A DNA stretch of 35,588 nucleotides, from positions 1-35,588 of the IMG/VR virus record IMGVR_UViG_3300048861_000118, one strand, 5' to 3'. Source of the stretch: a virus (lineage: Duplodnaviria > Caudoviricetes). Made by a program: the position numbers and the translations under genes. This document shows positions 2-17,673 of the stretch, one piece after another (position 1 is the stretch's first letter; every line of letters begins with the position of its first letter). The notes beneath the pieces were generated by a model. The model made no database searches. It saw only the letters and a program-made list of their open reading frames with translations, and was not told the DNA's origin.

Positions 2-2440
2 CTTGAAGCGAGCGACAAGGTCACTCGGCCGCTGCGCGATATGGCGGGCGGATCGACCAAGGCCGCACAGGCGCTCCGGGCCACGCGCGATCGGTTGAAG
101 GAGATCGAGCGCGCGCAGGCCGATGTCGGCGGGTTCCGCCAGCTCAAGGCGGGGCTCCGCTCGACTGAGACGGAATTGCAGACGGCGCGGACGAAGGTCG
201 GCCAGCTCGCCCAGCAGATGAACCAGGCGGGCGCCCCTACCCGCCAACTCACGCGCGACTTTGCCAAGGCCAAGCAGGAAGCGCAGGCGCTCAAGGATCG
301 CCATGCGCAGGAGGCTCGCCAGCTCCAGCAGCTCCGCGATCGGTTGAATGCGGCCAACATCTCGACGCGGGATCTGGCGCGTCATGAGCGGGATCTGCGC
401 GATCAGGCAGGCCGCACCACGCGCGAGCTGGAGCAGCAGTCCCGCCGCCTGGAGCTGCTCCAGCAGCGCCAGCAGCGCATGGCGGCAGGCCGGGAAGGAT
501 TCGACCGCGTCAATGGTCGCGCCGCTTCCCTCGCCGCCGGCGGCGCCGCCGCGATCGGCACTGGCGTTGTGATGGCCGCACCGATCATCGCTGCTGGCAA
601 GGAAGCGATGGAATTCGAAAGCCGCATGACCGACATCGCTCAGAAGGCGGATATGTCGCGTGCGGCGGCAGCCGGCATGGGCCATGAGCTGCTCGGCGCG
701 GCCAAGGCGGCCAACCAGCTCCCGCAGGCCATTCAGGAAGGCGTGGATACGCTCGCCGGCTTCGGCCTCGCCGTGCCCGACGCGCAGCAGATGGTGACGC
801 CGATCGGCCGCGCCGCGACCGCCTACAAGGCCGAAATGGCTGACCTCGCCGCCGCTGCGTTCGCGGCGAAGGACAACCTGAAGGTGCCGATCGATCAGAC
901 CGCCAAGGTGATCGATGTGATGGCATCGGCCGGAAAGGCCGGCGCCTTCGAAATCAAGGATATGGCGCAGTATTTCCCAACGCTGACCGCCGCCTATCAG
1001 GGCTACGGGCAGAAGGGTGTCGGCGCGGTCGCGGATCTGTCCGCCGCCTTGCAGATCACCCGAAAGGGAGCAGGCGACGCTGCGTCGGCAGCGACCAACC
1101 TTCAGAATGTCCTTCAGAAGCTGGCGTCGCCCGACACCGTCCGCGCGTTCAAGAAGAATTACAACGTCGATCTCCCGGCCGCGCTGAAGAAGGCGTATGC
1201 GGAGGGCAAGACGCCGATCGAGGCCCTCGCTGAGATCACCAACCGAACCCTGAAGGGCGATCTCAGCAAACTCTCCACCCTGTACAGCGATGCGCAGGTG
1301 CAGCAGGGCCTGCGCCCGCTCATCCAGAACATGGACGAGTATCGCCGGATCCGGAAAGAGGCTGGCGCCGCCAACGGCGTGACCGATACCGACTTCATCG
1401 AGCGCATGAACGACAGCGCCGAGAAGGCGAAGGCGCTGGAGATCCGCGCCAAGACGCTCTCCGTCGTCATGGGCGAGCAGTTGAAGCCAGTCTTCGATCC
1501 ACTGGCGGACAAGGCTCGTGAGCTGGCCGATCGGTTTGCGGGCTGGGCGGAAAAGAACCCGACCTTGGTCAGGGGGCTGGCGTTGGCCGCGATCGGCATG
1601 GCCGGGCTGTTCGTCGTGCTGGGCGGCGGCGCGATCGTCATCGCTGGCCTCCTCGCTCCGTTCGCCGCGCTCTCTTTCGCTGCCGGCGCGTTGGAGCTCG
1701 CCTTGCTGCCAACCATCGGCATCGCCGTCGCGATCATCGCGGGCCTCGCCCTGCTCGGCGTTGCCGGCTACGCACTATGGTCGAAGTGGGATGAGATCGG
1801 GGCCTATTTCAGCGGGCTCTGGCAGCGCATCTCGGATGGCTTTTCGGGAGCCGTCGCCGCGATCGGCGCGAAGATCTCCGAATGGACGGCGCTAGGCGGC
1901 CATCTGATCCAAGGCGTGATCGACGGCATCACTGGCAAGTTGGCGGCCTTGAAGTCGACCGTCGTCGGCGCCGCCGGCGCGGCCGCTGGTTGGTTCAAGG
2001 AACGGCTCGGCATTCACTCGCCGTCGCGCGTGTTCATGGGCTTCGGCGGCTTCATGATGGAGGGGCTTAGCGAGGGGATCGACGCCGGCACCGATGGGCC
2101 GACCCAGCGGATCGGAGATCTCTCCCGTAAGCTCACCGACCAGATGAGCGGCGCCGGCAACCAGCAGCGGCTTGGCGGCCTGTCGCGCCAGATCGGTGCG
2201 GCGCTGGCGATCGGAGCCGCCGTTCCGGCCGTCGCCGCGCCGTCCGGTGCGGCGGGCGCCGGCGGGGCAGGGGGGGCGACCGCTCCCACCAGCCGCGTGT
2301 TCAATATCACGATCAACCAGCAAGCGGGGCAGAGCGCGCAGGATCTGGCGAAGATGGTCGCCGACGAGATCGACCGGCGCGAGCGTCAGCAGGGCGCCGC
2401 CCAGCGCTCCAGCTATGCCGACACCCCCGATTGGGACTGA
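2..2440 (+). CDS. Tail tape measure protein (P2 gpT-like, TP901 core), 5' end probably outside window
   Basis: Frame is open upstream of ATG 41 (LEASDKVTRPLRDM); coiled-coil N-term, hydrophobic segments, LGIHSPSRVF motif; followed by U and D. Confidence 0.93.
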   Translation, partial: LEASDKVTRPLRDMAGGSTKAAQALRATRDRLKEIERAQADVGGFRQLKAGLRSTETELQTARTKVGQLAQQMNQAGAPTRQLTRDFAKAKQEAQALKDRHAQEARQLQQLRDRLNAANISTRDLARHERDLRDQAGRTTRELEQQSRRLELLQQRQQRMAAGREGFDRVNGRAASLAAGGAAAIGTGVVMAAPIIAAGKEAMEFESRMTDIAQKADMSRAAAAGMGHELLGAAKAANQLPQAIQEGVDTLAGFGLAVPDAQQMVTPIGRAATAYKAEMADLAAAAFAAKDNLKVPIDQTAKVIDVMASAGKAGAFEIKDMAQYFPTLTAAYQGYGQKGVGAVADLSAALQITRKGAGDAASAATNLQNVLQKLASPDTVRAFKKNYNVDLPAALKKAYAEGKTPIEALAEITNRTLKGDLSKLSTLYSDAQVQQGLRPLIQNMDEYRRIRKEAGAANGVTDTDFIERMNDSAEKAKALEIRAKTLSVVMGEQLKPVFDPLADKARELADRFAGWAEKNPTLVRGLALAAIGMAGLFVVLGGGAIVIAGLLAPFAALSFAAGALELALLPTIGIAVAIIAGLALLGVAGYALWSKWDEIGAYFSGLWQRISDGFSGAVAAIGAKISEWTALGGHLIQGVIDGITGKLAALKSTVVGAAGAAAGWFKERLGIHSPSRVFMGFGGFMMEGLSEGIDAGTDGPTQRIGDLSRKLTDQMSGAGNQQRLGGLSRQIGAALAIGAAVPAVAAPSGAAGAGGAGGATAPTSRVFNITINQQAGQSAQDLAKMVADEIDRRERQQGAAQRSSYADTPDWD

Positions 2441-2443
2441 CAC

Positions 2444-2842
2444 ATGACGGCCATCCTCTCTCTCGGCACCTTCGTCTTCAAGATCGACACGCTGCTCCAC
2501 GACGAGTTGGTGAGGCGCACCGCGTGGAAGCATGAGCGCCAGCCGCGTGTCGGTGCGCGGGCGGCCAACCAGTTCAACGGCCCCGGTGACGATATCATCT
2601 CGATCAACGGCACTGCATGGGCGGAATTGCAGGACGGCCGCGCCTCACTCGATCAGCTCCGCGAGATGGGCGATCAGGGCGGGATCTGGCCGCTGATCGA
2701 CGGCGCCGGGCGCGTGCTGGGCTCGTTCGTCATCGAAAATCTGGATGAGCGGACGCGGCACTGGTTTCCGAATGGCGAGGCCCGCAAGATCGATTTCGGC
2801 CTCGATCTCGCCCGCGTTGATGACGTGGAGGCGAAGGCGTGA
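2444..2842 (+). CDS. Phage tail protein, P2 gpU family
   Basis: LGTFVF...RVGARAANQFNGPGDDIISING...LIDGAGRVLG motif, position after tape measure. Confidence 0.92.
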   Translation: MTAILSLGTFVFKIDTLLHDELVRRTAWKHERQPRVGARAANQFNGPGDDIISINGTAWAELQDGRASLDQLREMGDQGGIWPLIDGAGRVLGSFVIENLDERTRHWFPNGEARKIDFGLDLARVDDVEAKA

Positions 2843-3879
2843 CCGTCGTCGTCGCCAACCAGTCCGATTACCGCGTCACCGTAGATGGAAAGGATATCAC
2901 TGGCTTTTTGCGGACCGGGACAAAGGACAGCGCCGGGCGCCCCCGTCCTCGTCTCGTGTCGCTCAGCATCAACGACAAGCCCGAGGAGGCCGATCAGCTC
3001 GATCTGGTGATCGACGACACCGACGGCCGCGTCGACATCCCCAGCCTCGGCGTCACCGTCCATGTCTGGATCGGTTGGAAGGCCGGGCCGGATGTTCAGG
3101 TTGGCCTGATCGACAAGGGTAGCTTCACCGTGGATGAGGTGAGCCATAGTGGTCCGCCGGACATCATCACCATCCGCGCGCGTTCTGCGGACTTCACGGC
3201 GGCCAGCTCGCTGCGCACGCGGAAATCGAAGGCGTGGCACGGCAAGACTCTCGGAGACGTGGTCCGCGATGTCGCGCATAGGCAGAAGCTCACGCCGCAT
3301 ATCTCCGCCGATCTGGATGCGATCCACGTTGATGCCGTGCATCAGAGCCGGGAAAGCGACGCAGCCTTCCTGCGCCGCCTCGGCCGCGAGCATGACGCCG
3401 TCGCGAAGATCAAGGCGGGCAAACTCGTCTTCTCGCGCAAGGGCACGGGAACCACCGCCAGCGGCAAGAAGATGCCCGCCCTCGTCATCAACCGGCGGGA
3501 TGGCGATAAGCACAGTTACGAGGTGAAAAAGCGCGAGGAAGTGACGGGCGTCACCGCCTCCTATCACGATCGGGGCGAAGCCAAGCATGAGCGCGCTGTG
3601 GTCGGCGAGAAGAAGCACGCCAAGCACCTGTCACGCGTCTACGCCACCAAGGAGGCGGCCGAGCGCGCGGCGAAGGCGGCGATGGCCCGCAGCAAGCGCT
3701 TTCCGGCAACTTTCAATCATACGATGGCGCTGGGGCGCGGCGACGTCTACCCGGAGCAGCACGCCACGGTGCGCGGGTTCAAGCCGAAGATCGATGCGCA
3801 AAAATGGCTGGTCGGTGAGGTCACGCATACGGTCACCGACCAAGGCTTCAGCACCGCTGTCAAATATGAGCCGGCATGA
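2839..3879 (+). CDS. Late control / baseplate hub protein, P2 gpD family
   Basis: DKGSFTVDEVSHSGPPD-ITIRARSADF and QSRESDAAFLRRL motifs; GTG start overlaps U stop. Confidence 0.93.
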   Translation: MTVVVANQSDYRVTVDGKDITGFLRTGTKDSAGRPRPRLVSLSINDKPEEADQLDLVIDDTDGRVDIPSLGVTVHVWIGWKAGPDVQVGLIDKGSFTVDEVSHSGPPDIITIRARSADFTAASSLRTRKSKAWHGKTLGDVVRDVAHRQKLTPHISADLDAIHVDAVHQSRESDAAFLRRLGREHDAVAKIKAGKLVFSRKGTGTTASGKKMPALVINRRDGDKHSYEVKKREEVTGVTASYHDRGEAKHERAVVGEKKHAKHLSRVYATKEAAERAAKAAMARSKRFPATFNHTMALGRGDVYPEQHATVRGFKPKIDAQKWLVGEVTHTVTDQGFSTAVKYEPA

Positions 3880-3911
3880 CGGGGCGGCGCGATATCATTG
3901 TCGGCCGACCC

Positions 3912-4502
3912 TTAAAGCCGCGCGCAAAATGCCGCCGCAACGGGGTAGGCGGCGCAGTAGGCGCGGGCGAGCTGCTCGTTGCCGGCGGTCCAGAAGCCGA
4001 TCTCATGGGCGCGGGCAAGGATCTCGTCGCCAGACAGCCCACGGCGCGCCTGGTCGGCCAGCTCGGCCGCCTGCGCTGTGAAATGGGCGATGCGCCGATC
4101 CCCCGCCGCGATCTCGACATTGATGCTTGTGACCGGACCTTTCGCGAGGGGCCGGCCCGCCGCCACGTCGGCCGCGATCGTCGCCATCGCATCCGCCGCG
4201 GCGTGGAAGGCGATAATGCCGTCGTCGCCGGCGGTGACGCGGATTGCGATATTGAGAACCGGCGCGGAGTAGGCCCCAAGCACGACCGAACTACTTACGG
4301 GTACAGCGCTCTTGGCTATAGCAGCCCGCGAGTCGGTTATAGAAGATGCGGACTTGTCGCCATGGTTGCCAATAGCGGTGATTATGACGGGGAAAAGAAC
4401 GAGCATTGCGAAGATAGAGGCGCCTATCGCTACCATCTTGCGCCGGCTCTGCTTGGCCTTTGCAACAACTTGTTTCGGATGCGTATCTAGTTTTGCAGAC
4501 AT
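3912..4502 (-). CDS. Hypothetical membrane-anchored protein (moron position)
   Basis: 196 aa; basic N-term then one hydrophobic helix (VAIGASIFAMLVLFPVIITAI); AT-richer 5' end; opposite strand to tail genes. Confidence 0.65.
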   Translation of the reverse strand: MSAKLDTHPKQVVAKAKQSRRKMVAIGASIFAMLVLFPVIITAIGNHGDKSASSITDSRAAIAKSAVPVSSSVVLGAYSAPVLNIAIRVTAGDDGIIAFHAAADAMATIAADVAAGRPLAKGPVTSINVEIAAGDRRIAHFTAQAAELADQARRGLSGDEILARAHEIGFWTAGNEQLARAYCAAYPVAAAFCARL

Positions 4503-4599
4503 ATTTTATCTCTGTTAAAAGCCATGCGGCAAAGGCGGTCATCGTGGCGGGAGCGCGCAGCATCTTCCCCTTTCCTACAGGGGGCGAGCAGGGCTATCG

Positions 4600-4614
4600 G
4601 AACGAAACAGGAAC
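4600..4614. promoter_or_regulatory. Alphaproteobacterial LexA (SOS) box
   Basis: GAAC-GAAACAG-GAAC = GAAC-N7-GAAC in an intergenic region. Confidence 0.75.
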
Positions 4615-4642
4615 GAAGGTGCGTGGAGTGAGTGGGTCCAAT

Positions 4643-4906
4643 GTGTATCGTGGCGTGGCGAAGTGTCGTGTCGGCTGCCCTCGGTGTGAGGTGCGCTGTT
4701 CAGTGTTGATGAATCTTCGGGAGGACGCGCGTGCTCGCGTCGAGGCCTTGCGTGGCCGGCTCGATCCGGTTCCCTCGGTATCTCTGGCCGCCGAGCTGCG
4801 TGCGGCAAGCGCGAGGCTGGAGGAGGTGGATCGGATGAGCCGGGCGGCAATGCCATGGGTGCGCCGCAACCGGGCGGGCGGCGAGCCGCTGGTGGCTGTG
4901 GGGTGA
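4643..4906 (+). CDS. Small Cys-rich protein downstream of LexA box (candidate antirepressor); start uncertain (GTG 4619/4628/4643/4655)
   Basis: Cx3Cx2Cx3C motif then helical region; GGAG upstream; converges on repressor gene. Confidence 0.55.
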   Translation: MYRGVAKCRVGCPRCEVRCSVLMNLREDARARVEALRGRLDPVPSVSLAAELRAASARLEEVDRMSRAAMPWVRRNRAGGEPLVAVG

Positions 4907-4911
4907 TGCCT

Positions 4912-4950
4912 CCTCACCCGCCGCGCTGCCGTCAGGCGCGGCGGGTGAGG
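4912..4950. terminator. 15-bp perfect hairpin between convergent genes
   Basis: CCTCACCCGCCGCGC-N9-GCGCGGCGGGTGAGG; no U-tract, so terminator role is inferred from position. Confidence 0.55.
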
Positions 4951-5477
4951 GGCAGCTCTCCATGATTGTCGTCGTGGGCGCCGTCATGCTCCTCGATCTC
5001 CAACGGGCCTTCCACGCCCCGCAAGCCGGGCGCGAGCGACTGCGCCAGCAGCTTCGCGATCTCTTCGCGTGGCTGCGTCAGATCGATTGTCGACAGGATG
5101 GTGTCGAACATCTCGATCAGCGCGATCTCGGGCGGAAGGTTGTCAGCCGGGTTGGTGCTGCCGGCGGTGTCGTTGAGGATCGCGGCGATCACGCGCGCGA
5201 TCGTGGCCCGGTCCGTCTCGGAGGCCAACCGCACCTTGCCGACCCAATCGGCATCGCCGGCCGGAGCCAGATTGCCGCTGGGGGTGCCCGTTACAAGGAA
5301 GCCGACATCGACGCCAGCGCCTGCCAAAAGCGCCAGATAATCGGCGTCGGGCGCGCGATCTCCCTTCTCATAATTGGTCTGCGCTCTCAACGACACCTGC
5401 CCGAGCGCCGCCATTTCGGCCTGATTAAGGCCGAGGCGTTTCCGCTCAGAACGGAGACGTCTGCAAAATACGCTCAA
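4932..5477 (-). CDS. Phage immunity repressor, XRE/Cro-C1 HTH, no S24 peptidase domain
   Basis: RLRSERKRLGLNQAEMAALGQVSLRAQTNYEKGDRAPDADYL HTH; TTG start at 5477 with GAGGA RBS; divergent from early operon. Confidence 0.85.
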   Translation of the reverse strand: MSVFCRRLRSERKRLGLNQAEMAALGQVSLRAQTNYEKGDRAPDADYLALLAGAGVDVGFLVTGTPSGNLAPAGDADWVGKVRLASETDRATIARVIAAILNDTAGSTNPADNLPPEIALIEMFDTILSTIDLTQPREEIAKLLAQSLAPGLRGVEGPLEIEEHDGAHDDNHGELPLTRRA

Positions 5478-5555
5478 ATGTGCAATGTCCTCTTGATAAC
5501 ACGCACGAGTGTGCGTATTATTCCACTCGTTTCCACTGCCGAGTGTGTTGCACAT
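5478..5555. promoter_or_regulatory. Lysis/lysogeny switch region with candidate operators
   Basis: ATGTGCAA (5478-5485) and its inverse TTGCACAT (5548-5555) flank the region; internal ACGCAC-N4-GTGCGT dyad and tandem TTCCACT repeats. Confidence 0.55.
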
Positions 5556-5850
5556 GTCGCGATCAAAAGTCTCCCCCGAAGAAGGGTCGACCAAGCGCAA
5601 GGGGCTAGATCCTGCGCGGGTTGCGGCGGCGCGGCGCCGCATCGAGCTATCGGGTACCAACATATCGGATTGGGCTCGCAGGCGTGGGTTCGACATCAAA
5701 CTCGTTCACGAAGTGCTGTCAGGCCATCGGCCCTGCACCCGAGGGCAATCATACCGCATCGCCATTCTCCTCGACCTCAAGGACGGGGCCTTGGACGACA
5801 TCGATCAGCGACTCGGTGGATCGCCGGTTGGGAACGCCGATCATGAATAA
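5554..5850 (+). CDS. Cro/Cox-like DNA-binding protein (BcepMu gp16-like family)
   Basis: NISDWARRRGFDIKLVHEVLSGHRPCTRGQSYRIAILL motif; first gene of early operon, divergent from repressor. Confidence 0.8.
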   Translation: MSRSKVSPEEGSTKRKGLDPARVAAARRRIELSGTNISDWARRRGFDIKLVHEVLSGHRPCTRGQSYRIAILLDLKDGALDDIDQRLGGSPVGNADHE

Positions 5851-5907
5851 TCGGGTCCGTAATGTCCCCTGCAATCGCCACTTTTTTGTGAACGGACGCT
5901 AACGAGC

Positions 5908-6366
5908 ATGACACTCAAGCGCGATACGCTGGGCATTCCCGGCGCAGTCCAAAAGGTGGTTGGCCTGATCGGAGCCGACAAAGCGGCACTGTTGGTCAAT
6001 AAAAGCAGCCGGATAGTCTATTATTGGGCAGAAGAGGGCGATCCGCGTACGCCGTCTGTGATCGAAGCCGCTACGCTCGACGCGGCCTATATTCAGGCTG
6101 GCGGCACCTATCCTCCCATTCAGACAGCCCTTGCCGCGATGATCGACGCGATGACAACCGCGCCATCGCGCGGCGCTCTGGCAGACGAGCTGGCTGAAGT
6201 GTCGAAAGAATGCGGCGAAGCTGTTGCGGCCGGCATCAAGGTGCTCGGCGGCGACGTGTCGGAACCCGACATCCGCCGGGCGCTGGTCGAGGTGCATGAG
6301 GGCGTGGCGCATATGGGCGGCCTCGCCCGCCGGCTGATGGCGATGCTCGAAGAGAGCGCCGCGTGA
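5908..6366 (+). CDS. CII-like regulatory protein
   Basis: N-terminal HTH-like segment (AALLVNKSSRIVYYW) with helical C-term (KECGEAVAA); position after Cro-like gene as in phage 186. Confidence 0.6.
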   Translation: MTLKRDTLGIPGAVQKVVGLIGADKAALLVNKSSRIVYYWAEEGDPRTPSVIEAATLDAAYIQAGGTYPPIQTALAAMIDAMTTAPSRGALADELAEVSKECGEAVAAGIKVLGGDVSEPDIRRALVEVHEGVAHMGGLARRLMAMLEESAA

Positions 6367-6695
6367 GGTCGTTCAAGCGCCAGCGCATCCCCGGCATCGC
6401 CTGCATGACGTGCGGCGCTCGCTCGATCGCACGCACCAGCGAGCAGGTGACACCGACCGTGCGCGAGGTGCGCTACGTCTGCGAAGATCCCGGATGTGAG
6501 GAAAGCTTTCTCGCGCAGGTGGCCGTGGTGCGGGTGATCCGCCCCAGCCTGAAGAAACTCCGTCCCGCCGGCGCACCGGCCGAGATCGCGTCGGATGCCA
6601 GCGTCCGCCGCCTCGCGCCAGCCAAGCGCTCCGATCCCGAACCTGATCCCCATCATGGCGATCTTCTGGCTCCGTTGATGACCAGCACCGCCTAG
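6363..6695 (+). CDS. ogr: Ogr/Delta-like zinc-finger late transcription activator
   Basis: CMTCGARSIARTS...VREVRYVCEDPGCEESF C4 zinc finger. Confidence 0.88.
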   Translation: MRSFKRQRIPGIACMTCGARSIARTSEQVTPTVREVRYVCEDPGCEESFLAQVAVVRVIRPSLKKLRPAGAPAEIASDASVRRLAPAKRSDPEPDPHHGDLLAPLMTSTA

Positions 6696-6784
6696 CCGGA
6701 CCGCAGGGTCCACCTCCTTTCCGACCACCCGCGACGCGCCCCCTTCGGCGCGAACGCTTTCGCTTTGCCCGGAGACATCACACC

Positions 6785-6904
6785 ATGGCCAACCGAGAGA
6801 AGACGAAGTCGAGACTCATTGCCTGCGCCACCATCGTGCTGGCGCTGATCGCAGCGCCGTTCCTGCTGGTGACGATCGCCGCCCAGACTGGTGATCGCCG
6901 GTGA
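6785..6904 (+). CDS. Small membrane peptide (39 aa)
   Basis: GGAG RBS, MANREKTKSRLIACATIVLALIAAPFLLVTIAAQTGDRR, stop overlaps next GTG. Confidence 0.55.
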   Translation: MANREKTKSRLIACATIVLALIAAPFLLVTIAAQTGDRR

Positions 6905-7179
6905 TCCACGTCCTCAATGCCGACGATCGCCGCGAGCAGCTCGGCAACTTCGTCCGCGCCAGTCGGATCCAGGCGGGCCTGACGATCGAGCAGACGGCCG
7001 AGCGCATCACGCGCAACGCCGCCACCACCCGTCATCACGGCCTGGTCCTCTCGCTGATCGAGGACGGCCGCCACCTCCCCACCGATGCCTACATCGATCG
7101 GATCGTCGCCGTGCTGCCCATCAACCCGCGTCTCCTCCGCACCTTGGCCGCGCCGACCGCGTCGGCCACCCGGCACTGA
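6901..7179 (+). CDS. HTH-like DNA-binding protein
   Basis: LGNFVRASRIQAGLTIEQTA...LSLIEDG XRE-like pattern. Confidence 0.6.
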   Translation: MIHVLNADDRREQLGNFVRASRIQAGLTIEQTAERITRNAATTRHHGLVLSLIEDGRHLPTDAYIDRIVAVLPINPRLLRTLAAPTASATRH

Positions 7180-7185
7180 AAGGCC

Positions 7186-7389
7186 GTGTCGATGACCTGT
7201 TCTTTCTGCGGTGACGGCGATTTCTATGAGGCGCCCGACGCCGGCGATCTCGCCGACTTCGTCCGCGCGCTCGTTGCCGGCGACTTGGCGCTCGCACGGA
7301 TACTCGTCTCGCGAATCTTCCCCGACGCACCATCGGCCGCCGTCTGTGAGCGGGCGATGGCGACACCCCAGACAGTGAGGGCTGCATAA
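7186..7389 (+). CDS. Hypothetical protein
   Basis: 67 aa, CSFC motif, translationally coupled to next gene. Confidence 0.55.
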
Positions 7390-8003
7390 TGTCCGACGGC
7401 AACATCGCAGCGGACCAGCTCCGCCTCTACATCGAGCGCATCGAGCGGCTCGAAGAAGAGAAAAAAGGCCTTCAGGACGACACCAAGGACGTCTACCTCG
7501 AAGCGAAATCGCAGGGCTACGACCCCAAGACGATGCGCACCATCGTCCGGCTGCGGAAGATGGAGAAGGGCGCCCGCGACGAGGCGGAATCGCTCCTCGA
7601 AACCTACAAGACCGCGCTGGGCATGGACAGTGAGCCGAGCAGGCCTCGGATCTCCCGCGCGCCCGATCGCCGCCCCGATCCTGCGCCGCCGGCATCTCCG
7701 CCCAGCGCCGACTTGCACGACCTGTATGTCACCGCCGTGGGCGTCGTAACCGGCCAAGGCAGTACCTCGACCTCCTTCCTCCAACGCCAGCTACGGATCG
7801 GCTACAATTCGGCCGCCCGCTTGGTCGAGCAGATGGAGCGCGACGGCATAGTCGGGGCACCAGATCACGTCGGGCGCCGGGAACTGCTGCTGGATGCTGC
7901 CGGCGCCGCACAAGCGATCGTTGATGCGGATCTGCGAAAGCTTTCGGGCGCCGTGAAACCCGGTGATCCGGCGGAGCCGGTGTCTGCGCAGGGGCTCAAC
8001 TGA
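7389..8003 (+). CDS. GapR/DUF2312 nucleoid protein fused to an FtsK gamma (KOPS-binding) domain
   Basis: aa ~1-79 [20 protein letters not shown]...[14 protein letters not shown]...[11 protein letters not shown] (GapR); Pro-rich linker; [30 protein letters not shown] (FtsK gamma). Confidence 0.88.
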
Positions 8004-8167
8004 TGCGCGCCCAGCCCAGCCTTGCCGCCCGCTTCGAAGCTGCCGCCGAGCCCGGCGATATCGAGGTGCTGCTCACCGCCGCCATCCTCTCCGTCGTCGG
8101 TGTCGCTATCATGGTTCTGATCGACGCCGCGCCCGAGATCCTGTCTCTCATTCGGGGAGGCTTCTGA
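8003..8167 (+). CDS. Small membrane protein (54 aa)
   Basis: TGATG coupling at both ends, one hydrophobic helix. Confidence 0.55.
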   Translation: MRAQPSLAARFEAAAEPGDIEVLLTAAILSVVGVAIMVLIDAAPEILSLIRGGF

Positions 8168-8685
8168 TGTCCGCCCACGGCTACAGCTACCATCCCGTCG
8201 CGAAGGGCGGTGCGTTCGAAGTCACCAACGCCGGCCGCGTGATGGCCACCACCACGGATCGGCTGGACGCGGCCGCGATCGTTCACGCACTCGCCAGCCA
8301 GCAGCCGGTGTTCGTCGGCGTCGACTTCGGGACGGGCGACGATATCGGCGCCGCCGTGGTCGCCGAACCGCGCAACTTTCGCGACCTCTTCGTCCACAAG
8401 GCGCGGCAGGGCCGCGATCCGCGGTTCGAGGCGGTGATCCGCCGGCACGCGCTGGAGCATGATTATCGCAGCCTCGCCAACGACGGCAAGACGCTGGCGG
8501 CGCTCGGCCTTGCGATCGCCACGGCCTTCGCGATCGGCGAGGCCGGCGGCCGCCGGGGCGTGCAGGAGGTGATCCACACGGCCCTGATCGACGCGGACTA
8601 TCTGGTGCTGGCGAACGACCGCCACTTCTCGGCCGAGGTAGCTGACCAGGCGCTCGCCTTCTTTGCGCCGGAGATGGCCGAGTGA
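8167..8685 (+). CDS. Hypothetical early protein
   Basis: GGAGG RBS, coupled start MSAHGYSY, GC3-rich codons. Confidence 0.65.
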   Translation: MSAHGYSYHPVAKGGAFEVTNAGRVMATTTDRLDAAAIVHALASQQPVFVGVDFGTGDDIGAAVVAEPRNFRDLFVHKARQGRDPRFEAVIRRHALEHDYRSLANDGKTLAALGLAIATAFAIGEAGGRRGVQEVIHTALIDADYLVLANDRHFSAEVADQALAFFAPEMAE

Positions 8686-8933
8686 TCGCCACCACCCCGT
8701 CGCCGATCGCCGCCACGCTCGGCACCGACATTTGCATCCTGTCGGTCGAGGTGGCGAAGACCACCATCGGCCAGATCGTCGCCTATGAGCTGGGCCGGCT
8801 GGAAATGCAGGTCGGCCTCAAGGCTGGCCGCATCAGAGAGGCGACGGTGCGGGCGGTGACCGAGCAGATCATCACCCGCATCAACGCCCTCGATCCCGTC
8901 ACCATTTGCCAGCCGCGACCGCTTCAAGGCTGA
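8682..8933 (+). CDS. Hypothetical early protein
   Basis: 83 aa, GTGA overlap with upstream gene. Confidence 0.6.
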   Translation: MIATTPSPIAATLGTDICILSVEVAKTTIGQIVAYELGRLEMQVGLKAGRIREATVRAVTEQIITRINALDPVTICQPRPLQG

Positions 8934-9097
8934 TGCTCATCCGGCTGTTCCGCCGGCCGCAGACGGCCACGGCATCCGAGCTGGGGCGCGCGATGCGTGC
9001 CGAGCAGGAACGCCAGTGGCGCGAGCGGCGGGACGCCAAAACAGCCGAGCTGCTGGCCGGGCTGGCAAAGCGGACGCTGCCAGCGCCGCCCGACTGA
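8933..9097 (+). CDS. Hypothetical early protein
   Basis: TGATG coupling, 54 aa. Confidence 0.5.
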   Translation: MLIRLFRRPQTATASELGRAMRAEQERQWRERRDAKTAELLAGLAKRTLPAPPD

Positions 9098-9144
9098 TCG
9101 CCGCCAGCGCATTTTCTTGTTCCTTGCTTACCGGGTATTATCAC

Positions 9145-9870
9145 ATGAACGCTCGCTCCCTGTTCGAGATCGCCACCAACGCAGCCGCCCAACAGGGGCA
9201 GCGCGAGAAGGGCCAGCCCGTCCGGCGCCACAGCTATTTCCCCGACGATCGCCGCGCGCTCGCCATGTGGAAGCCGCTCGACAAGAAGGTGGCGACGGTC
9301 GCGGAACGCCTGACAGCGGCCGAGCGCTACGATCGCGACATGCGCAAGCAGGGCGAGCGAATGGGGCCGCTCGGTGAGATCGGGCTGGCGGTCTACCGCG
9401 TCATGCATTTCTTGATCGACAAGAAGGGGCGCCTCGATCCCGCGATCGACTATATCGCCGCCAAGATCCGGCGCAGCCGTAAAGCCGTGGTGGCCGCGCT
9501 CGCCCGCCTCAAGGAGCATGGCTTTCTTGATTGGGTCCGCCGCGCCGAGCCCGTCGACGAGGCGCAGCAGGGCGAGAAGGGGCCGCAGGTGAAGCAGATC
9601 TCCAACGCCTATGTGCTGAAGATCCCCAAGCTCGCCATGGACTTCATTCGCGGCCGCAAGGGGCCGGCGGCCCCGGTCTGCGAAGAGGACCGGCGCGCTG
9701 CGCACAAGGAGGAGAAGGAGGAGATGCTGGACAGCCTGCCTCTGGCTGAACTCCCCGGCGCACTTGTTGAGAATGACTCGCTTCGGGAAATTCTCGGGCG
9801 AATGGGGGCATCTCTCTCTGTGTCTAACGCGAATTCCCCGAGGGGCCAGATACAGGGCCATAGGGGTTAA
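9145..9870 (+). CDS. Winged-HTH protein resembling small-plasmid replication initiators, in the position of P2 gpA
   Basis: GRLDPAIDYIAAKIRRSRKAVVAALARLKEHGFLDWVRR...QISNAY wHTH; last gene of early operon before cos. Confidence 0.65.
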   Translation: MNARSLFEIATNAAAQQGQREKGQPVRRHSYFPDDRRALAMWKPLDKKVATVAERLTAAERYDRDMRKQGERMGPLGEIGLAVYRVMHFLIDKKGRLDPAIDYIAAKIRRSRKAVVAALARLKEHGFLDWVRRAEPVDEAQQGEKGPQVKQISNAYVLKIPKLAMDFIRGRKGPAAPVCEEDRRAAHKEEKEEMLDSLPLAELPGALVENDSLREILGRMGASLSVSNANSPRGQIQGHRG

Positions 9871-10173
9871 GAATAAGAGGAGCGGCTAGACGCCGCGCGC
9901 TTTGCTCCATCATCGCACCGCCAAGGCCATCGCCGCCGCACCAAGCAGTGCTGGTGGACGCCCCGGCTGCGCCGGGTCGGGTGCTCCCAGGGGGAGCTGG
10001 CGGCGAAGCCTCGCCCGGCCGCAAGCGCTATTCTCGGACAAGCGCTGAAAAGGCACCTTCAGGTGCATCAAACCGCATCGGCCGCAGGCCCCACCTCCCG
10101 CCAAATAGGCCCTGTGGGACCGGGGCCGCATCAGACCGCTAAATCGCATCAAAAGCGCCTCGGAAAGTGCGCG

Positions 10174-10196
10174 GGCGAGGAGGGGGGAAAAGCGCG
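10174..10196 (+). other. Putative cohesive end (cos) site, P2-type
   Basis: GGCGAGGAGGGGGGAAAAGCGCG resembles P2 cos GGCGAGGCGGGGAAAGCAC; located downstream of portal as in P2. Confidence 0.7.
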
Positions 10197-10504
10197 CGAT
10201 TTGGGGGCGTATCTCGACTGCCGCCGCGCCGACGCTGGGCCGCCTGCGGGGGCGCGAGAGGGCCGACAGGCTTCCGCGTGCGTCGGGAAGGCCCCCGCCG
10301 CCGAGGCGCTGAGCGGGCCGCATATCGCGATCTAGGGGTATGCCGATAAATAGACCGGCGGCGCGGGCGGCGAGATAGGCCAGCCGCGCGCCGAGAGGCC
10401 GAGGTGGGCTAGATCCTGCGGCTCGGCCGGCGACTGGTCCACCCGCCGCGCGATTGATCACGCCGCGCCCTGCCGGAGCGGATCACCCCGGCCGACGTTC
10501 TGTC

Positions 10505-10738
10505 ATGATGACCGCGACCGAAATGCGCGCGTACCTCGTCGAGCTGCTGGCCGGCGCCGCCGGCGGCGACCCGGCACGCTGGGACCGATGCGTCGGCCGC
10601 GTCGCTTGGCACCCGCTCGGCGCGAACCCTCATCCGAATTGGTCGATCGCCCCGACCGGCACCCGCAAAGAGATCGACGCGATCCGACAGGCCGAAGCTC
10701 TGGTGCGTGACCATCACCGCTTCGTCATCGGGGATTGA
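10505..10738 (+). CDS. Hypothetical protein between cos and portal
   Basis: 77 aa ORF with GC3-rich codons in a P2 moron position. Confidence 0.6.
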   Translation: MMTATEMRAYLVELLAGAAGGDPARWDRCVGRVAWHPLGANPHPNWSIAPTGTRKEIDAIRQAEALVRDHHRFVIGD

Positions 10739-10975
10739 GGCCGGCGCGGCCGGCGGCGCTAGAAGTCGATCTGTCGCCTGCTCATCTCGGCCGCCAGCTC
10801 GTCTGTCCGCTCGGTGTCGACTTCGCAGTCGAGGCACTCCCACTCGCGGCGAAGCCCTTGATCCGTCATCTCGGCCGGCGGCTTGGGCTGGTCCATGACG
10901 GAGAAACGCGCCAGCGGCCGAATGGTCCCGGCGTCTGGGGGGCGGGAGCGCCGTCCAGGCGGCCCGCCCCTACCC

Positions 10976-12013
10976 TCACTTCTTCGGCAGCGCCTCGGTC
11001 ATCGGCTCGAACATGATCGCCTCCACCCCGAGCTGGTCGTTGATGTCGAGCAGCGCGTTCTGCAACGCGAGGATCTCGGACCGCTTGAACGCATCGAGCG
11101 CGACGCTCACGTCGCCGAAGCCGCCGGCGTTGGTCGGCACGATTCCGAGGAGCTGGGGCGGCGTGCGATGGGCGGCCAGTACGTCGTCGCGGGTGACGTT
11201 CTTGATGCCGAGAAACTCGTCCTTGGCGCCCACCTCGGTCACCGGGATGATCTTGAGCCCGCTCTCCTTGCCCGAAGGCGTGTGCACGAACATGTTGCGG
11301 AAATTGCCCGGCCCCTTCGACTGCCGGAGCGACTCCTTGATCGCCTCGATATCGCCATCGCCGAAATCTCCCGTCGCATAGAGAATGTAGCCGGCGTGGC
11401 TTCCATTCTCGTAATAGCGGCGGCGGAACAGGGTGGCGGCCTCGTTGAGCAGCGCCGATTGCAGGGCGCTCAGATAATCGGGGACGCCGTAAATCTCCTG
11501 ATTGATGTCGGGCGCCCGCACCTGCACGATCGATCCGGGCGCGAATTGCTCCTCCTTCTTGTACCCGGTGACGAACCAATAGTCGCCATCGGCCAGTCCG
11601 CGCCGCGTATATTTGGCCAGCGCATGATCTAGCCGCAGCAACCCGCCCAGCCGGTTCGTCCGCCGCTCAAGATACGCATTGCCGAAGACGAGATAGTCCT
11701 GCGCCGCCGCCGCGAACGCCTGCCGGCTCAACCACTTCGACGGCTTGAACGAGCTGCTGAGCAGCCGCACCTTCAGCTGGATCGCGGATCCATGGTGCGG
11801 CGAGGAGCGAAACACGCGCGCCAGCCCCTCAAGCGGGATCGGCGGCTCCCACCAGCGGCCGTTATGGTAGCACTCGCACAGATCCATCACGTCGCGCCGC
11901 GACATGACCGGCTCCGGATCTCCGAACGAGAATATCTCGGCCGAGCCGGTCCGCACGCCGATCTGCACGGGGTCGGGCTCGATCGGCGCCGGGCTGCTGT
12001 CGACAACAAGCAT
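10976..12013 (-). CDS. Portal protein, PBSX/P2 gpQ family
   Basis: FSFGDPEPV, DINQEIYGVPDYLSALQSALLNEAATLFRRRYYENGSHAGYI, KGPGNFRN motifs. Confidence 0.96.
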   Translation of the reverse strand: MLVVDSSPAPIEPDPVQIGVRTGSAEIFSFGDPEPVMSRRDVMDLCECYHNGRWWEPPIPLEGLARVFRSSPHHGSAIQLKVRLLSSSFKPSKWLSRQAFAAAAQDYLVFGNAYLERRTNRLGGLLRLDHALAKYTRRGLADGDYWFVTGYKKEEQFAPGSIVQVRAPDINQEIYGVPDYLSALQSALLNEAATLFRRRYYENGSHAGYILYATGDFGDGDIEAIKESLRQSKGPGNFRNMFVHTPSGKESGLKIIPVTEVGAKDEFLGIKNVTRDDVLAAHRTPPQLLGIVPTNAGGFGDVSVALDAFKRSEILALQNALLDINDQLGVEAIMFEPMTEALPKK

Positions 12014-13858
12014 TTACAGGATCTCCATGGAGCCCTTCGGCTTTTCCTTGCCGTCGAGCGGTTCGTTGATGAGGATGTGCATGGTCGCCCAGGCGAGATC
12101 GGCGTGGCCCTCGCTACCGCCCCGGCCAGCCTTAAAGGTGACGTTACGGCCGCTGGTGGTGAGCGTCTTCTTGATGCTGATGAAAGAAGAAATGATATCG
12201 ACCCAGCCGCTATCGAACGCAATCCGGCCAGTGCGGATGACGTTTTGCGCCTTCATAATCATCTGCGCCTTGGTTTCTAGAGAGTATTCGATCTTCACGA
12301 CGCCTTTCACGCCGCTGTCAGCTTTGGCCAATAGCTGGTAAACACCGGAGCCTGCACCCGTCTTGTCGATACCAAGGTAAGTGCAGTTGTAGCGCTTCAG
12401 GATGCCCTTAATGAATTCGGCCTGCTGCTGGTAATCAAGGCCACGCAGCTGGTGGCGTTCCAGCAGCCGGAACGAGCCGCCCTGCTCGGTCGGCGGCGCC
12501 GCAATGACCAGCGCCGCGTTGTCGCCTTCGGGGCTTTCCTGCGGGTCGTAACCCGCCCAGACCGGGCGATTGCCATAGGGTCGCGGCGCGTCGGGATCGA
12601 CGTCGATCCAATCGACCAGGCTGTCACACCCGGCGTTGACGAGATCATTGAACTTGAAGGCCGACAGGCTGTCGTCGACGAAATCGCACTCGAACAGGTT
12701 GGCGAATTCGTCTGGCGCATATTCGTCCTTCAGCTCCTCGATGTCGAACAGATCGCAGCCGGCCGCCTCGGCATCGTGGACGGTGACGATGTGGCGCCAA
12801 ATTCGGTCAGGCCCCACCGAGCCGGCGGCAAGCGCGGCATGGCTCACGTCGATCTTGATCTGGTCTTCCTTCTTCCGACGCCGGTTCCGCCGCTCACCGG
12901 TCCAGTAAGGATAGGCCTCGTGCGCCACGGTGGACGGTGTCGAAAAATAGGTCTTCCGCCATTTCTTGTGGGTCGCCATGCCGGACGCGACCTTGTTCAA
13001 CTTCTCGAAGCTGTGGACCCAGAAGAATTCGTCAAAGTAAAAGTTGCCGTGGTAACTCTGCGCGGTGTTGGAATTGGTTCCGAGAAAAATGATCTCAGCC
13101 GCCGCTTCGTCCGTGGGGCGCAGCTCGCTGGTGATGCGCATCGGGTCGCCGGTGAGGACGACACCCACCATCTTCGCAAAGCCGATCATGTAGCTCTTGA
13201 ACTGGTGGGCCTGCGCCTTCGAGGCTGACAGGAAGATCTGGTTCCGGCCGGTCTCGATCGCGTCGATCAGCGCCTCGAACGCGAAGTAATAGGTCGCGCC
13301 GATCTGGCGTGACTTCAGGATATATCGCGTGCGCCGATGAAGATTGGCTAGCCACGTTTCCTGATAGCCATAGAGCTGGCTCTCGAAGATGCGGCGCAGC
13401 TCGGCCGCCTGTTCGGCGGTGAAGTGGTTCTTCTTCGCGGCCTTGCGCGGGCCGGCATTCCGGTTGGCGACCTTCTCGTTCAGATCGCCTTCGTGGCCGC
13501 CCGGCTCCTCGAACCGGCGGACGCGGGCCAGCGTCGCGATCTGGCGGCCGAGGAGGTCGATCTCCTTGTAGTCGGCGGGGCTCTTCTTCTCCTTCAGGAC
13601 GAGTGCCTGCCAGCGCACCTCCAGCGCGTCTTCCATGCGCCGGATCATCGGCGCGTCGTCCCACCCCTCCCGTTGCTTCCAGCTTTCGATAGTGGCGCGC
13701 GGGTACGGCTTGCCCTTGTCGTTGAGGACGCCGAGCTGCTCCAGTTCGTCGGCGATCTCGGTGACGCCCCAGCCCAGCCAGAACAGGCTGCGCGCCCGCC
13801 GGCGCGGGTCGAGCAGGCGGGGCATCAGCGGCGGGATGACGGGGTCGGCACGATCCAT
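12014..13858 (-). CDS. Terminase ATPase subunit, P2 gpP family
   Basis: ILKSRQIGATYYFA, GRNQIFLSASKAQA, YFDEFFW, GHADLAWA motifs. Confidence 0.96.
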   Translation of the reverse strand: MDRADPVIPPLMPRLLDPRRRARSLFWLGWGVTEIADELEQLGVLNDKGKPYPRATIESWKQREGWDDAPMIRRMEDALEVRWQALVLKEKKSPADYKEIDLLGRQIATLARVRRFEEPGGHEGDLNEKVANRNAGPRKAAKKNHFTAEQAAELRRIFESQLYGYQETWLANLHRRTRYILKSRQIGATYYFAFEALIDAIETGRNQIFLSASKAQAHQFKSYMIGFAKMVGVVLTGDPMRITSELRPTDEAAAEIIFLGTNSNTAQSYHGNFYFDEFFWVHSFEKLNKVASGMATHKKWRKTYFSTPSTVAHEAYPYWTGERRNRRRKKEDQIKIDVSHAALAAGSVGPDRIWRHIVTVHDAEAAGCDLFDIEELKDEYAPDEFANLFECDFVDDSLSAFKFNDLVNAGCDSLVDWIDVDPDAPRPYGNRPVWAGYDPQESPEGDNAALVIAAPPTEQGGSFRLLERHQLRGLDYQQQAEFIKGILKRYNCTYLGIDKTGAGSGVYQLLAKADSGVKGVVKIEYSLETKAQMIMKAQNVIRTGRIAFDSGWVDIISSFISIKKTLTTSGRNVTFKAGRGGSEGHADLAWATMHILINEPLDGKEKPKGSMEIL

Positions 13859-13904
13859 GCCGGAAATCACTAGGCATGGCCCGCGCGCGCGCGAGATGCT
13901 GGAT

Positions 13905-13925
13905 TTGTAGAGAGTGCCCCTACAA
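13905..13925. promoter_or_regulatory. Late-promoter activator site (Ogr-type dyad) between divergent P and O genes
   Basis: TTGTAGAGAGTGCCCCTACAA, TGT-N13-ACA; near-identical copies at 28232 and 34071. Confidence 0.72.
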
Positions 13926-14019
13926 GGCGAGCGCGTTGAGAGAGGAAGTCAATCCGAGGATTGGTCGAGCGGTCAAGTGCAAGTCCGCAGCATCAATTCT
14001 ACAGGGACCGTCCTCTCCC

Positions 14020-14841
14020 ATGACTAAAAGCAAGTTCTTCCGCGCTTTCGTCGAGGGTTCGACCGTCAGCGACGGCCGCAAGATCACCCGCGAGATGATC
14101 GACCAGATCGCCGAGACGTTCAGCACGGACGCCTATACGCCGCGCATCAACATCGAGCATCTGAAGGGCTACAGCCCGGAGCCGCCGTTCAATGGCTACG
14201 GCAGCGTGATCGCGGTCAAGGCGCAGGACGACGAGATCACGATCGCCGGCGAGAAGAAGACCGTCCGCGCTCTCTACGCGCAGGTCGACGGCAACGATCA
14301 GCTGGTGAAGCTGCGCAAGCCCGGCACCGACCAGAAGCCGTTCCCGTCCGTCGAGCTGACCGATTCCTATGCCGGCTCCGGCAAGGTCGGCATGATCGGT
14401 CTCGCCTTCACCGACACGCCGGCGTCGCTCGGTACGCAGGCGCTCCAGTTCTCGCGCTCGACGCCGGGATCGGTGTTCGCGGCCGGCGACGAAGCGGTCG
14501 AGCTGGAATTCGAAGATGTCACCGCCGACCAGGCCGGCTTCCTCCGTTCGGTCAAGGGCATGATGGATGCCTTCTCCGCGCGCTTCGCCAAGCCGGAAGA
14601 GCCGAAGGTGGAGACGCCCCCGGCCGCGCCCGCAGGCTTCGACATGGCGGCCTTCAGCCGCGAGGTTGGCACGCTGATCACCGGCGCGATCGGCGCCTAT
14701 GCGACCGCCAACGACGCGGCGCTGGCCGCGCTGCGGACGGACTTCACCAACCTCAAGACCCAGCTCGAAACCACCGAGGACAAGAGCTTCCGCCGGTCGC
14801 CCGCCTCGGGCGGCGAGGGCCGGATCCTCACCGACTGCTGA
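14020..14841 (+). CDS. Capsid scaffolding protein/protease, P2 gpO family
   Basis: SKFFRAFVEGSTVSDGRKI...INIEH...GLAFTDTPASLGT; ends LTDC. Confidence 0.94.
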   Translation: MTKSKFFRAFVEGSTVSDGRKITREMIDQIAETFSTDAYTPRINIEHLKGYSPEPPFNGYGSVIAVKAQDDEITIAGEKKTVRALYAQVDGNDQLVKLRKPGTDQKPFPSVELTDSYAGSGKVGMIGLAFTDTPASLGTQALQFSRSTPGSVFAAGDEAVELEFEDVTADQAGFLRSVKGMMDAFSARFAKPEEPKVETPPAAPAGFDMAAFSREVGTLITGAIGAYATANDAALAALRTDFTNLKTQLETTEDKSFRRSPASGGEGRILTDC

Positions 14842-14889
14842 TCGGCCGTCCCCTCTCCTCGCCTGCCCCCCATCGGAGCCTGTCCCTAA

Positions 14890-15921
14890 ATGCGTAACGA
14901 AACCCGTCTCCAGTATAACCAGCTTCTGCGCCGCATTGCGGAGCTGAACGGCGTGGAGGACGCCAGCAAGTCCTTCTCCGTCGACCCGTCGATCACCCAG
15001 AAGCTGGTGGAGCGCCTCGGGCAGTCCAGCGACTTCATGAGCCGGATCAACGTGATCCCGGTGAAGGAGCAGGAGGGCGAAAAGCTCGGCATCGGTGCCA
15101 CCCGCCCCATCGCCAGCCGTACCGACACGTCCAAGGCGGGTAGCACCGGACGCACGCCCATCGATCCGACCGACAATGCCAGCCTGAACCGCTACCGCTG
15201 CGAGAAGACCAACTCGGACACGGCGATTAAATATGTACGGCTCGACGCCTGGGCGCATCGGCCGGAGTTCCAGACCCTCGTCCGCGATGCGATCCTCGCG
15301 CAGAAGGCGCGCGACGCGATCATGATCGGCTTCAACGGCGTGAAGGTCGCGGCCGAAACCAGCCTCACCAACTATCCGCTGCTTCAGGATGTCAACATCG
15401 GCTGGCTGGAACAGATCCGGAAGAGCGCGCCGGATCGCGTCCTGTCGGAAGGCGAGAAGGAGGAGGGCAAGATCCTCATCCGCGCGGCCGGCGGCGGCGA
15501 CTATGTCAATCTCGACGCGCTGGTCTACGACGGCATCGAGTTGCTCGACGAGTGGCACCGCGATGCGACCGATCTGGTCGCTGTCGTCGGCCGCGATCTG
15601 GTCCACGACAAGTATTTCCGCATCGTCAATGCCTCCGGTGACGATCCGGTCAAGCAGATGGCGCGTGACGTGATCCTTTCGTCCAAGCAGATCGGCGGCC
15701 TGCCGGCGGTGCGCGTGCCCTTCTTCCTGCCGAAAAGCTTGATGATCACCTCGCTCAGCAACCTGTCGCTCTATGTGCAGGAAGGCAGCCAGCGCCGCTT
15801 CCTTCAGGAAGAGCCCAAGTTCGATCAGGTGGCCAACTACGAGAGCGAGAACGACGCCTTCGTGGTCGAGGACTTCGGCAAGGCCGCCCTGTTCGAGAAC
15901 ATCGACACCGAGCGCGCCTGA
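14890..15921 (+). CDS. Major capsid protein, P2 gpN family
   Basis: MRNETR, IGFNG...PLLQDVNIGWL, VRVPFF, YESENDAFVVED motifs. Confidence 0.96.
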   Translation: MRNETRLQYNQLLRRIAELNGVEDASKSFSVDPSITQKLVERLGQSSDFMSRINVIPVKEQEGEKLGIGATRPIASRTDTSKAGSTGRTPIDPTDNASLNRYRCEKTNSDTAIKYVRLDAWAHRPEFQTLVRDAILAQKARDAIMIGFNGVKVAAETSLTNYPLLQDVNIGWLEQIRKSAPDRVLSEGEKEEGKILIRAAGGGDYVNLDALVYDGIELLDEWHRDATDLVAVVGRDLVHDKYFRIVNASGDDPVKQMARDVILSSKQIGGLPAVRVPFFLPKSLMITSLSNLSLYVQEGSQRRFLQEEPKFDQVANYESENDAFVVEDFGKAALFENIDTERA

Positions 15922-15982
15922 TCGCGCGGGGCCGCGTCTCCGGGCGCGGCCTTCCACTCCTTTCCACAGAGACAAGATCACC

Positions 15983-16804: not shown

Positions 16805-16915
16805 CCCGCTCGCCCCCCGGCGCTCGGGGGCAGATCGCCGCCGGCGGGACCGGATCTCTGATCCGCTGGCCGCCCCAGCACCGATCTCCACCCCCGATTT
16901 CATCTGGAGCCGCCC

Positions 16916-17425
16916 GTGACCACCACCATCATCCCCGCATGGCCGCAGCGTGCCAACGAGGACGGCGGCGCGGACACCCCCTCCCCGCCTGCCGATGGCC
17001 CGAAGATCCGCAACGACGGCTGGTTCCCCGACATCGACCCGGCCGCGCTGCGTCTGCGCTACCGCATTCGGCAGGACGTGACGGCCGAGCGGCTCCGCGA
17101 AGCGATCCTCGGCGGGATCATGCTGGTGGGCATCGAGCTGGCAGGCTGGCAGGCCAAGCGTTTGGCCGAGGGCGCCGCGCGGCTGGAGGACGTCTCCCCG
17201 CGCGAGCTGGACGGGGAGAACCGTCTCGCGCTGCTCTACCGCCGCGCTGTGGCGTCCGAGGCGCGGGCGCTGCTGATCGAAGGGTATCGGGACTCCGATC
17301 TGACCGGCAAGGGCGATCGCGCGGTCGCGGATCTCGATCCGTCGATCGGCGAGCTGCGCCGCGATCGCATCCACTCCGTCCGCGACATCATGGGCAAGCT
17401 GCGCACCACGGTCGAGCTGCTCTGA
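16916..17425 (+). CDS. Head completion/stabilisation protein, P2 gpL family
   Basis: IRNDGWFPDID, LYRRAV, YRDSDLTGKG, C-term TTVELL. Confidence 0.92.
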   Translation: MTTTIIPAWPQRANEDGGADTPSPPADGPKIRNDGWFPDIDPAALRLRYRIRQDVTAERLREAILGGIMLVGIELAGWQAKRLAEGAARLEDVSPRELDGENRLALLYRRAVASEARALLIEGYRDSDLTGKGDRAVADLDPSIGELRRDRIHSVRDIMGKLRTTVELL

Positions 17426-17643: not shown

Positions 17644-17673
17644 CATGACGCACAACCACAGCGGCGAAGCCGC

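Follow-up and report, generated by a model that had tools for sequence, protein, structure and literature searches.

The window analysed here is one whole IMG/VR record (35 588 nucleotides, classed as linear, 65% GC). A single uninterrupted frame at 7389-8003 on the plus strand encodes a 204-aa protein (P0001) in which a GapR domain is followed by an FtsK gamma domain. This gene is joined to both flanking genes through TAATG/TGATG overlaps, and a GAGG motif sits 8 nt 5' of it. As originally predicted, it lies in a phage early operon. A CI-like repressor ORF (4932-5699, minus strand, start probably internal), an HTH gene, and a CII-like gene with an Ogr/Delta activator (5908-6695, plus strand, same operon as the fusion) are located upstream. 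The operon is closed downstream by a gene for a plasmid-type RepA/HTH replication protein (9145-9870, plus strand). The CI-like and HTH genes are separated by a putative sigma-70-like promoter (5493-5521, plus strand, 10/12 consensus match) that faces the operon. No integrase was found beside the repressor in the window.

The protein was analysed with Pfam and AlphaFold2. The GapR domain (PF10073/DUF2312) was found at aa 7-78 (7407-7622, plus strand), with 72/72 profile positions matched (E 6e-33; 112.6 bits against a cut-off of 22.6). The FtsK gamma winged helix (PF09397) was found at aa 111-168 (7719-7892, plus strand) and covers profile positions 5-62 of 63 (E 9e-22; 77 bits against a cut-off of 30.6). 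Between them, a Pro-rich linker (aa 79-110; 7623-7718, plus strand) was modelled with low confidence and resembles the linkers of the nearest GapR-gamma homologues. The alpha-beta ATPase motor of FtsK/SpoIIIE is absent from the 204 residues according to Pfam (no PF01580 or PF17854 match), and no Pfam domain other than GapR and FtsK_gamma was found in the protein. The AlphaFold2 model (mean pLDDT 85) contained two confident domains joined by the low-confidence linker, with GapR helices predicted at residues 6-41, 46-57 and 60-77. The modelled gamma superposed on solved FtsK gamma structures with an rmsd of 1.0-1.3 A among the best matches. Its recognition loop and helix (aa 132-150; 7782-7838, plus strand) carry the equivalents of the E. 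coli KOPS, XerD and DNA-contact residues. The C-terminal extension (7893-8000, plus strand), with a predicted helix at aa 170-187 and a low-confidence tail, is variable and weakly conserved in the family alignment. The original prediction of a complete GapR domain, a Pro-rich linker and an FtsK gamma without a motor was thus borne out by Pfam: DUF2312 and Ftsk_gamma were both matched in the one frame, and it is indeed the C-terminal half that matches Ftsk_gamma.

An assembly artefact was ruled out on three grounds. A second IMG/VR contig (L082) carries an identical fusion gene. The linker is spanned by one contig from each of two soil runs, which may be source samples (7517-8507 and 7517-8102). 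Homologues also contain the two domains. The product of 7389-8003 was therefore confirmed as a genuine GapR-gamma fusion.

The residues of both DNA-binding parts were compared with those of the characterized proteins. The DNA channel of Caulobacter GapR involves K34, K42, K49, K56, K59 and K66 together with the E28-R65 pair (PMC7373187; PMC6853979). The channel residues correspond to K25, K33, K40, K47, R50 and K57 in the fusion and the pair to E19 and R56. At each of these positions the residue present here is also the most frequent one, occurring in 75-97% of the 191 fusions collected. For gamma, base-contact assignments were taken from PMC2680272 and PMC5052618. In E. coli FtsK, the R1300, E1303, E1306 triple mutant is KOPS-blind (PMC2680272), and the three equivalents (R144, E147 and E150) are retained in the fusion. 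So are those of Q1288, R1289, R1292-G1294 and N1296, through which E. coli FtsK contacts XerD (PMC5052618). Over 192 phage gamma domains, the wing arginine was present in 99%, the four core contact residues were retained together in 165 and the E1303 and E1306 equivalents were each conserved at about 90%. The R1300, E1303 and E1306 equivalents occurred together in 105/192. Position 1300 was basic in 116/192 phage gammas versus 39/40 host FtsKs, a comparison that omitted the locus of an unpublished genome; its 29 non-sphingomonad hosts, being the best Pfam scorers, lean towards the consensus. Some members of the family may therefore read KOPS less specifically, although residue 1297 or 1300 is basic in 150/192 domains. 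Every XerD contact of gamma also belongs to its DNA contacts (PMC5052618), so conservation of the contact residues does not distinguish a role in XerD binding from one in DNA binding.

KOPS (GGGNAGGG) was counted in the window and elsewhere. The window contains 25 copies, versus 5.7 in shuffled sequences (0/100 shuffles reached 25) and 4.7 expected by a Markov model; its density is 0.70 per kb, versus 0.20 near a host dif. All 14/14 sites at 10968-25705 are on the minus strand and all 9/9 sites at 26755-35392 are on the plus strand, and three overlapping copies form a cluster at 28841-28858 in the latter arm. The strand switches at the ParA-RHH genes of a Par/Rep cassette, and the 2300-10900 region, which includes the fusion gene, has zero KOPS. 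With breakpoints set by eye, KOPS was the most polarised among 1917 like-shaped motifs with at least 10 matches; with free breakpoints the polarity gave p 6e-4, and 0.011 once clusters were merged. Gene direction was rejected as its cause, genes being mostly on the plus strand on both arms, and so was GC skew, the cumulative skew showing no flip at 26 kb. The same octamer is polarised around a Sphingomonas chromosomal dif, with 19 plus/0 minus on one side versus 1 plus/20 minus on the other (five 20-kb pieces per side). The arrangement at 10968-35392 resembles a mini-chromosome, yet its convergence zone contains no dif.

Other loci were scored in the same way. Integrated relatives have mostly one-directional KOPS at lower density; one-directional KOPS is known for lambdoid prophages (PMC3603311). 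The observed/expected ratio was 2.22 for 26 fusion loci, 1.87 for 14 GapR-only viral loci and 1.49 for 33 P2-like relative loci, and no tie between the fusion and KOPS enrichment or avoidance was found among these three sets. For Ruegeria phage 45A6, 49 of the 53 kb were scored (L137 1-49000), and no KOPS occurred where 5.3 were expected. Two near-identical GapR-only phage-plasmid records (G020 and G021) have dense, polarised KOPS converging near a dif-like site. In these (G020:C1 1-20000, L379; G021, L380), GapR occurs without gamma; RepA and ParA were seen for G020.

These counts bear on the proposal that the fusion serves host takeover. A clamp on chromosomal KOPS would block FtsK loading, or mixed tetramers would mislocalise host GapR, so that segregation and division would be delayed during lytic growth. 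The KOPS-reading residues are intact in the fusion, and the absence of KOPS from 45A6 would suit such a weapon. The operon position of the fusion gene is one at which P2/186-like phages encode inhibitors of division and replication. Mixed host-phage tetramers are plausible, since the GapR domain shares 88% identity with the one GapR that a Sphingomonas chromosome encodes, among housekeeping genes, and since fused GapR domains cluster with the GapRs of host genera in a tree. On the other side, cells with a KOPS-blind FtsK have a normal growth rate and a loss of about 5% per generation (PMC2680272), a mild phenotype, and FtsK is able to strip DNA-bound proteins (PMC2800217). KOPS avoidance is not seen across the fusion phages taken together, and a pure poison would have no need of an intact DNA channel. 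The mild phenotype and the lack of KOPS avoidance weaken the idea of a division blocker, and host takeover as the main function is considered doubtful.

By gene content, the element looks like a phage-plasmid of the pZM36 type, with P2-type head and tail genes and plasmid Rep and Par. A plasmid cassette (20428-28298, both borders bridged by contigs) is inserted between tail genes S and J. It contains a toxin-antitoxin-like pair, a symmetric recombination-like site, a tyrosine recombinase, ParA, RHH, Rep3 and 22-bp iterons. Two plasmid-type replication systems are thus present in one P2-like phage: RepA/HTH (9145-9870) and the iteron-type Rep3 with ParA of the cassette (20428-28298). No relatives of this Rep3 were found in viral contigs. 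The toxin-antitoxin-like pair (20635-21283) consists of Gp49-like (PF05973) and HTH genes in a low-GC stretch. A perfect 12-6-12 inverted repeat at 21936-21965 has the shape of a single-recombinase site and lies 2 kb from the tyrosine recombinase (24058-25017); it is likely a dimer-resolution site. The start codon for the RepA-like protein is overlapped by a ten-base match to one arm of this palindrome (9138-9147, half-site only). Through this half-site the plasmid recombinase might keep the lytic Rep gene repressed, or the match might be due to chance. A Dam-type adenine methyltransferase and a convergent SAM-dependent methyltransferase are encoded at 32274-34027, between the tail-fibre and baseplate V genes. 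The sheath and tube genes are missing from the window. Contigs extend 1872 and 282 bases beyond its ends, roughly as much as the absent sheath-tube block would occupy, and these extensions fit a candidate circle of about 38 kb. We infer that the element is a phage-plasmid and that its host is a Sphingomonas-like soil bacterium.

The spread of the fusion was examined by several searches. A homologue search gave 831 matches, and domains were checked in the best 120 of them. Both Pfam domains were present in all of these 120, in the order GapR-gamma in 97 and gamma-GapR in 23. The final collection of 264 proteins, which includes a profile search of 50%-identity representatives, contained 191 fusions (131 GapR-gamma, 58 gamma-GapR and 2 with two gammas), with linkers of about 20-120 aa. 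Fusions in both orders were found across unrelated alphaproteobacterial temperate phages. Ruegeria phage 45A6 is one GenBank phage that carries a fusion (gamma-GapR), annotated as FtsK. Among 401 Sphingomonadales genomes, both domains lay in one frame for 1 of the 150 matches listed (there were 40 further), a search that may miss reversed-order or long-linker fusions. A search of genome contigs returned GapR loci, none with a fused gamma, and a metagenome search gave 80 loci with no fusion (67 FtsK-like and 13 ending at contig ends).

Gene neighbourhoods were surveyed for seven other fusion loci and one flanking gene (72 of the 111 candidate ORFs, near-duplicate loci and fusions being omitted). 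Two of the seven loci are P2-like prophages with their own integrase, and two are lambdoid phages with Erf, a Holliday-junction resolvase and an O-like Rep. A DNA methyltransferase gene was present within about 4.5 kb in 7/7 of the other fusion loci (L083, L085, L087-L090 and L099), a count made with no control set. Gamma was also found fused to phage RdgC (L114 9101-10342; L115 8927-10183), to unknown domains, and to a phage primase-helicase, where it is placed between the Prim-Pol and D5 domains (L091 9290-12535). The main partner of gamma in these viruses is GapR: of 32 viral-contig loci with a sphingomonad-type gamma, 27 are GapR fusions. The literature search, mostly outside subscription papers, found no description of a GapR-gamma fusion, in agreement with the earlier statement that no characterised example was known. 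It found no paper on phage RdgC-gamma or primase-gamma fusions and none in which a phage GapR was tested experimentally. The fusions form a widespread family built from two known domains, of which no characterised example is known.

The origins of the two domains were studied with trees that are rough, the GapR and gamma alignments using only 65-74 columns. In the GapR tree, fused and stand-alone domains were intermixed, and a single clade of fused GapR domains was rejected (AU p 1.7e-5; 19 sampled fused versus 15 solo rows). Phage gammas clustered with sphingomonad FtsK with support 95/95, and one origin of the phage gamma was compatible with the tree test (p 0.36; 22 sampled phage rows). The gamma studied here is 56-62% identical to the nearest FtsKs. 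In 27 related P2-like records, found by capsid or RepA, GapR was present in 17/27 and gamma in 0/27. Gamma is therefore not needed in these phages. GapR adjoins replication genes in the relatives and is common among them, so the base function of the fusion would be that of GapR. Gamma is a captured FtsK domain, an optional module that was repeatedly gained, lost or swapped. This optional character, the frequent reversal of domain order and the resemblance of the window to a phage-plasmid had all been missed in the original prediction.

Such a history would also suit a portable, largely non-specific DNA-binding module, in which gamma boosts affinity, KOPS is irrelevant and the benefit is small. 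The fusions to RdgC, primase-helicase and unknown domains, the two domain orders and the variable linkers (about 20-120 aa) are all expected from it. So are the scattering of fused GapR domains outside one clade (AU p 1.7e-5), the relaxation of position 1300 in 40% of phage gammas and the uncoupling of KOPS density from the fusion. A module of this kind fits less well with the predominance of GapR as partner (27/32 sphingomonad-type viral loci, a count inflated by shared descent). Nor does it predict the conservation of E1303/E1306 at about 90%, the basic residue at 1297 or 1300 in 150/192 domains or the retention of all KOPS residues in the present fusion. It is held to be an unlikely account of the fusion.

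The gamma domain could alternatively act on XerCD. Clustered gammas would switch on host XerD with no motor. The outcome would be the resolution or integration of phage DNA, or else the knotting and catenation of sister chromosomes at the host dif. Isolated gamma activates E. coli XerCD without the motor, the engineered gamma-3 does so more strongly, and the products are complex and catenated (PMC3130261). The minimal E. coli FtsK peptide 1289-1297 (PMC5052618) is matched at 7/9 positions in the fusion, every listed contact residue is present, and four are kept together in 165/192 phage domains, a conservation for which DNA binding alone also accounts. A dif PWM was built from 20 sphingomonad dif sites, which themselves score 29.5-40.3. 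No dif was found in the window (best score 0.6; about 2 kb of the putative circle lies outside it) or in 26/26 fusion loci (best score 8.3). The best match in the window, rejected as a dif, is the symmetric 12-6-12 palindrome close to the plasmid recombinase; it does not lie in the zone where the KOPS converge. Ten fusion-bearing whole virus records contained no dif core within 1 mismatch and one within 2; a dif-like site occurs instead in the two GapR-only phage-plasmid records. The one chromosomal fusion prophage is 565 kb from dif, hence not at the host dif, and several fusion phages have their own integrase.

The host recombinase was also compared with that of E. coli. In sphingomonad XerD-like proteins (L221 1450-2370; L220, L222-L224), 5/5 have Arg in place of the key E. 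coli E184 and Ala at Y187/W188, and the partner Arg of host FtsK is retained. These five proteins score below the family cut-off, and the one whose neighbours were examined adjoins an accA-like gene. Judging from these residues, FtsK-XerD activation in sphingomonads may rely on other contacts. The lack of dif and a sphingomonad XerD without the E. coli contact residues disfavour XerCD activation for the phage's own DNA, and a motor-free activator is regarded as quite improbable overall.

Of the three functions offered originally, a KOPS-targeted topology factor fits best, because both DNA surfaces are intact and the genome is KOPS-rich; the XerCD activator is disfavoured and the division blocker is weakened. 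Tentatively, and with somewhat less than even confidence, gamma is proposed to give the GapR topology clamp a second, KOPS-preferring grip by which it is loaded onto DNA after induction. Gamma would hold DNA, with a preference for KOPS octamers, and next to it the GapR domains would close as a tetrameric ring. By homology with host GapR, such a tetramer would surround DNA and display up to four gammas on flexible linkers. This would be enough for one KOPS, which is occupied by three gammas (PMC5052618). The loading step of FtsK would thus be copied and the motor left out. GapR binds GC-rich DNA more weakly (Kd 529 nM on 80% GC DNA versus 313 nM on 20% GC; PMC13408042), and a second grip would give higher GapR occupancy on GC-rich DNA after induction. 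The ring would then help gyrase and topo IV to match replication and unlinking of phage circles, and as a side effect host FtsK and host GapR would be disturbed to some extent. Stimulation of topoisomerases by the fused GapR is assumed by analogy with the host protein. Gamma was also considered as a candidate contact for topo IV: the FtsK C-terminus stimulates topo IV independently of the motor, and the relevant passages do not mention gamma (PMC2875013). Against the KOPS-loading reading count the KOPS-free 45A6, the two GapR-only phage-plasmids with polarised KOPS, the dispensability of gamma in relatives and the uncoupling of KOPS density from the fusion.

A bolder version, rather unlikely, treats the protein as a motorless mimic of FtsK. 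A ring clamp loaded on KOPS through multivalent gammas would read the host's chromosome-polarity code. It would take over the KOPS of the phage-plasmid, turning an FtsK-segregated plasmid into a replicating phage, and would stall segregation of the host terminus; the RdgC-gamma fusions would be convergent. KOPS and gamma are known only within host FtsK segregation; for GapR, only sequence-poor sensing of topology is known. If KOPS is indeed read, this would be the first phage reading chromosome-polarity signals and the first sequence-targeted GapR. If gamma is a mere affinity booster, the fusion would be a case of modest domain shuffling in phage early genes. The protein is small and easily tested, and mutant positions are known for each half.

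The fusion was finally compared with known systems. Stand-alone GapR is encoded by Erythrobacter phage R34L1 (PMC12185513), with the same domain and no gamma, and T4 DsbA is a remote GapR homologue (PMC7824862). The Zymomonas element pZM36, a P2-like phage-plasmid with the same gene order, has its GapR slot between Ogr and the Rep gene, without gamma. Two short genes annotated as GapR-type occupy the position of the fusion there, and the match covers the GapR part only. Motor-free, multivalent display of gamma was likewise obtained with the engineered gamma-3 and XerC/XerD-gamma fusions (PMC3130261), but the phage fusion is natural, has no dif in cis and faces a host XerD whose contacts are unlike those of E. 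coli. IMEX-type elements exploit Xer through FtsK-independent XerD activation, with a dif-like attachment site and integration at dif; no such site was found in the fusion loci examined, nor such integration in the one chromosomal case. In the phage RdgC-gamma and primase-gamma proteins (L114, L115 and L091), gamma is likewise grafted onto a DNA-handling protein, with another partner and in other phage groups. RdgC is itself a DNA-encircling ring. With the host GapRs of Caulobacter crescentus and Bosea (PF10073/UPF0335; PDB 6CG8, 6JYK, 6OZX and 6CFY), the fusion shares the three-helix domain, the six basic channel residues and the E28-R65 pair. The host protein stands alone, whereas the fusion is encoded in a phage early operon and carries an additional domain that reads sequence. 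With FtsK gamma (PF09397; PDB 2J5P, 2VE9 and 5DCF), it shares the fold, the recognition loop and a sphingomonad-type sequence. Host FtsK is a membrane-anchored hexameric pump, whereas in the fusion gamma has neither the alpha-beta motor nor the anchor and is predicted to be carried on a passive tetramer.
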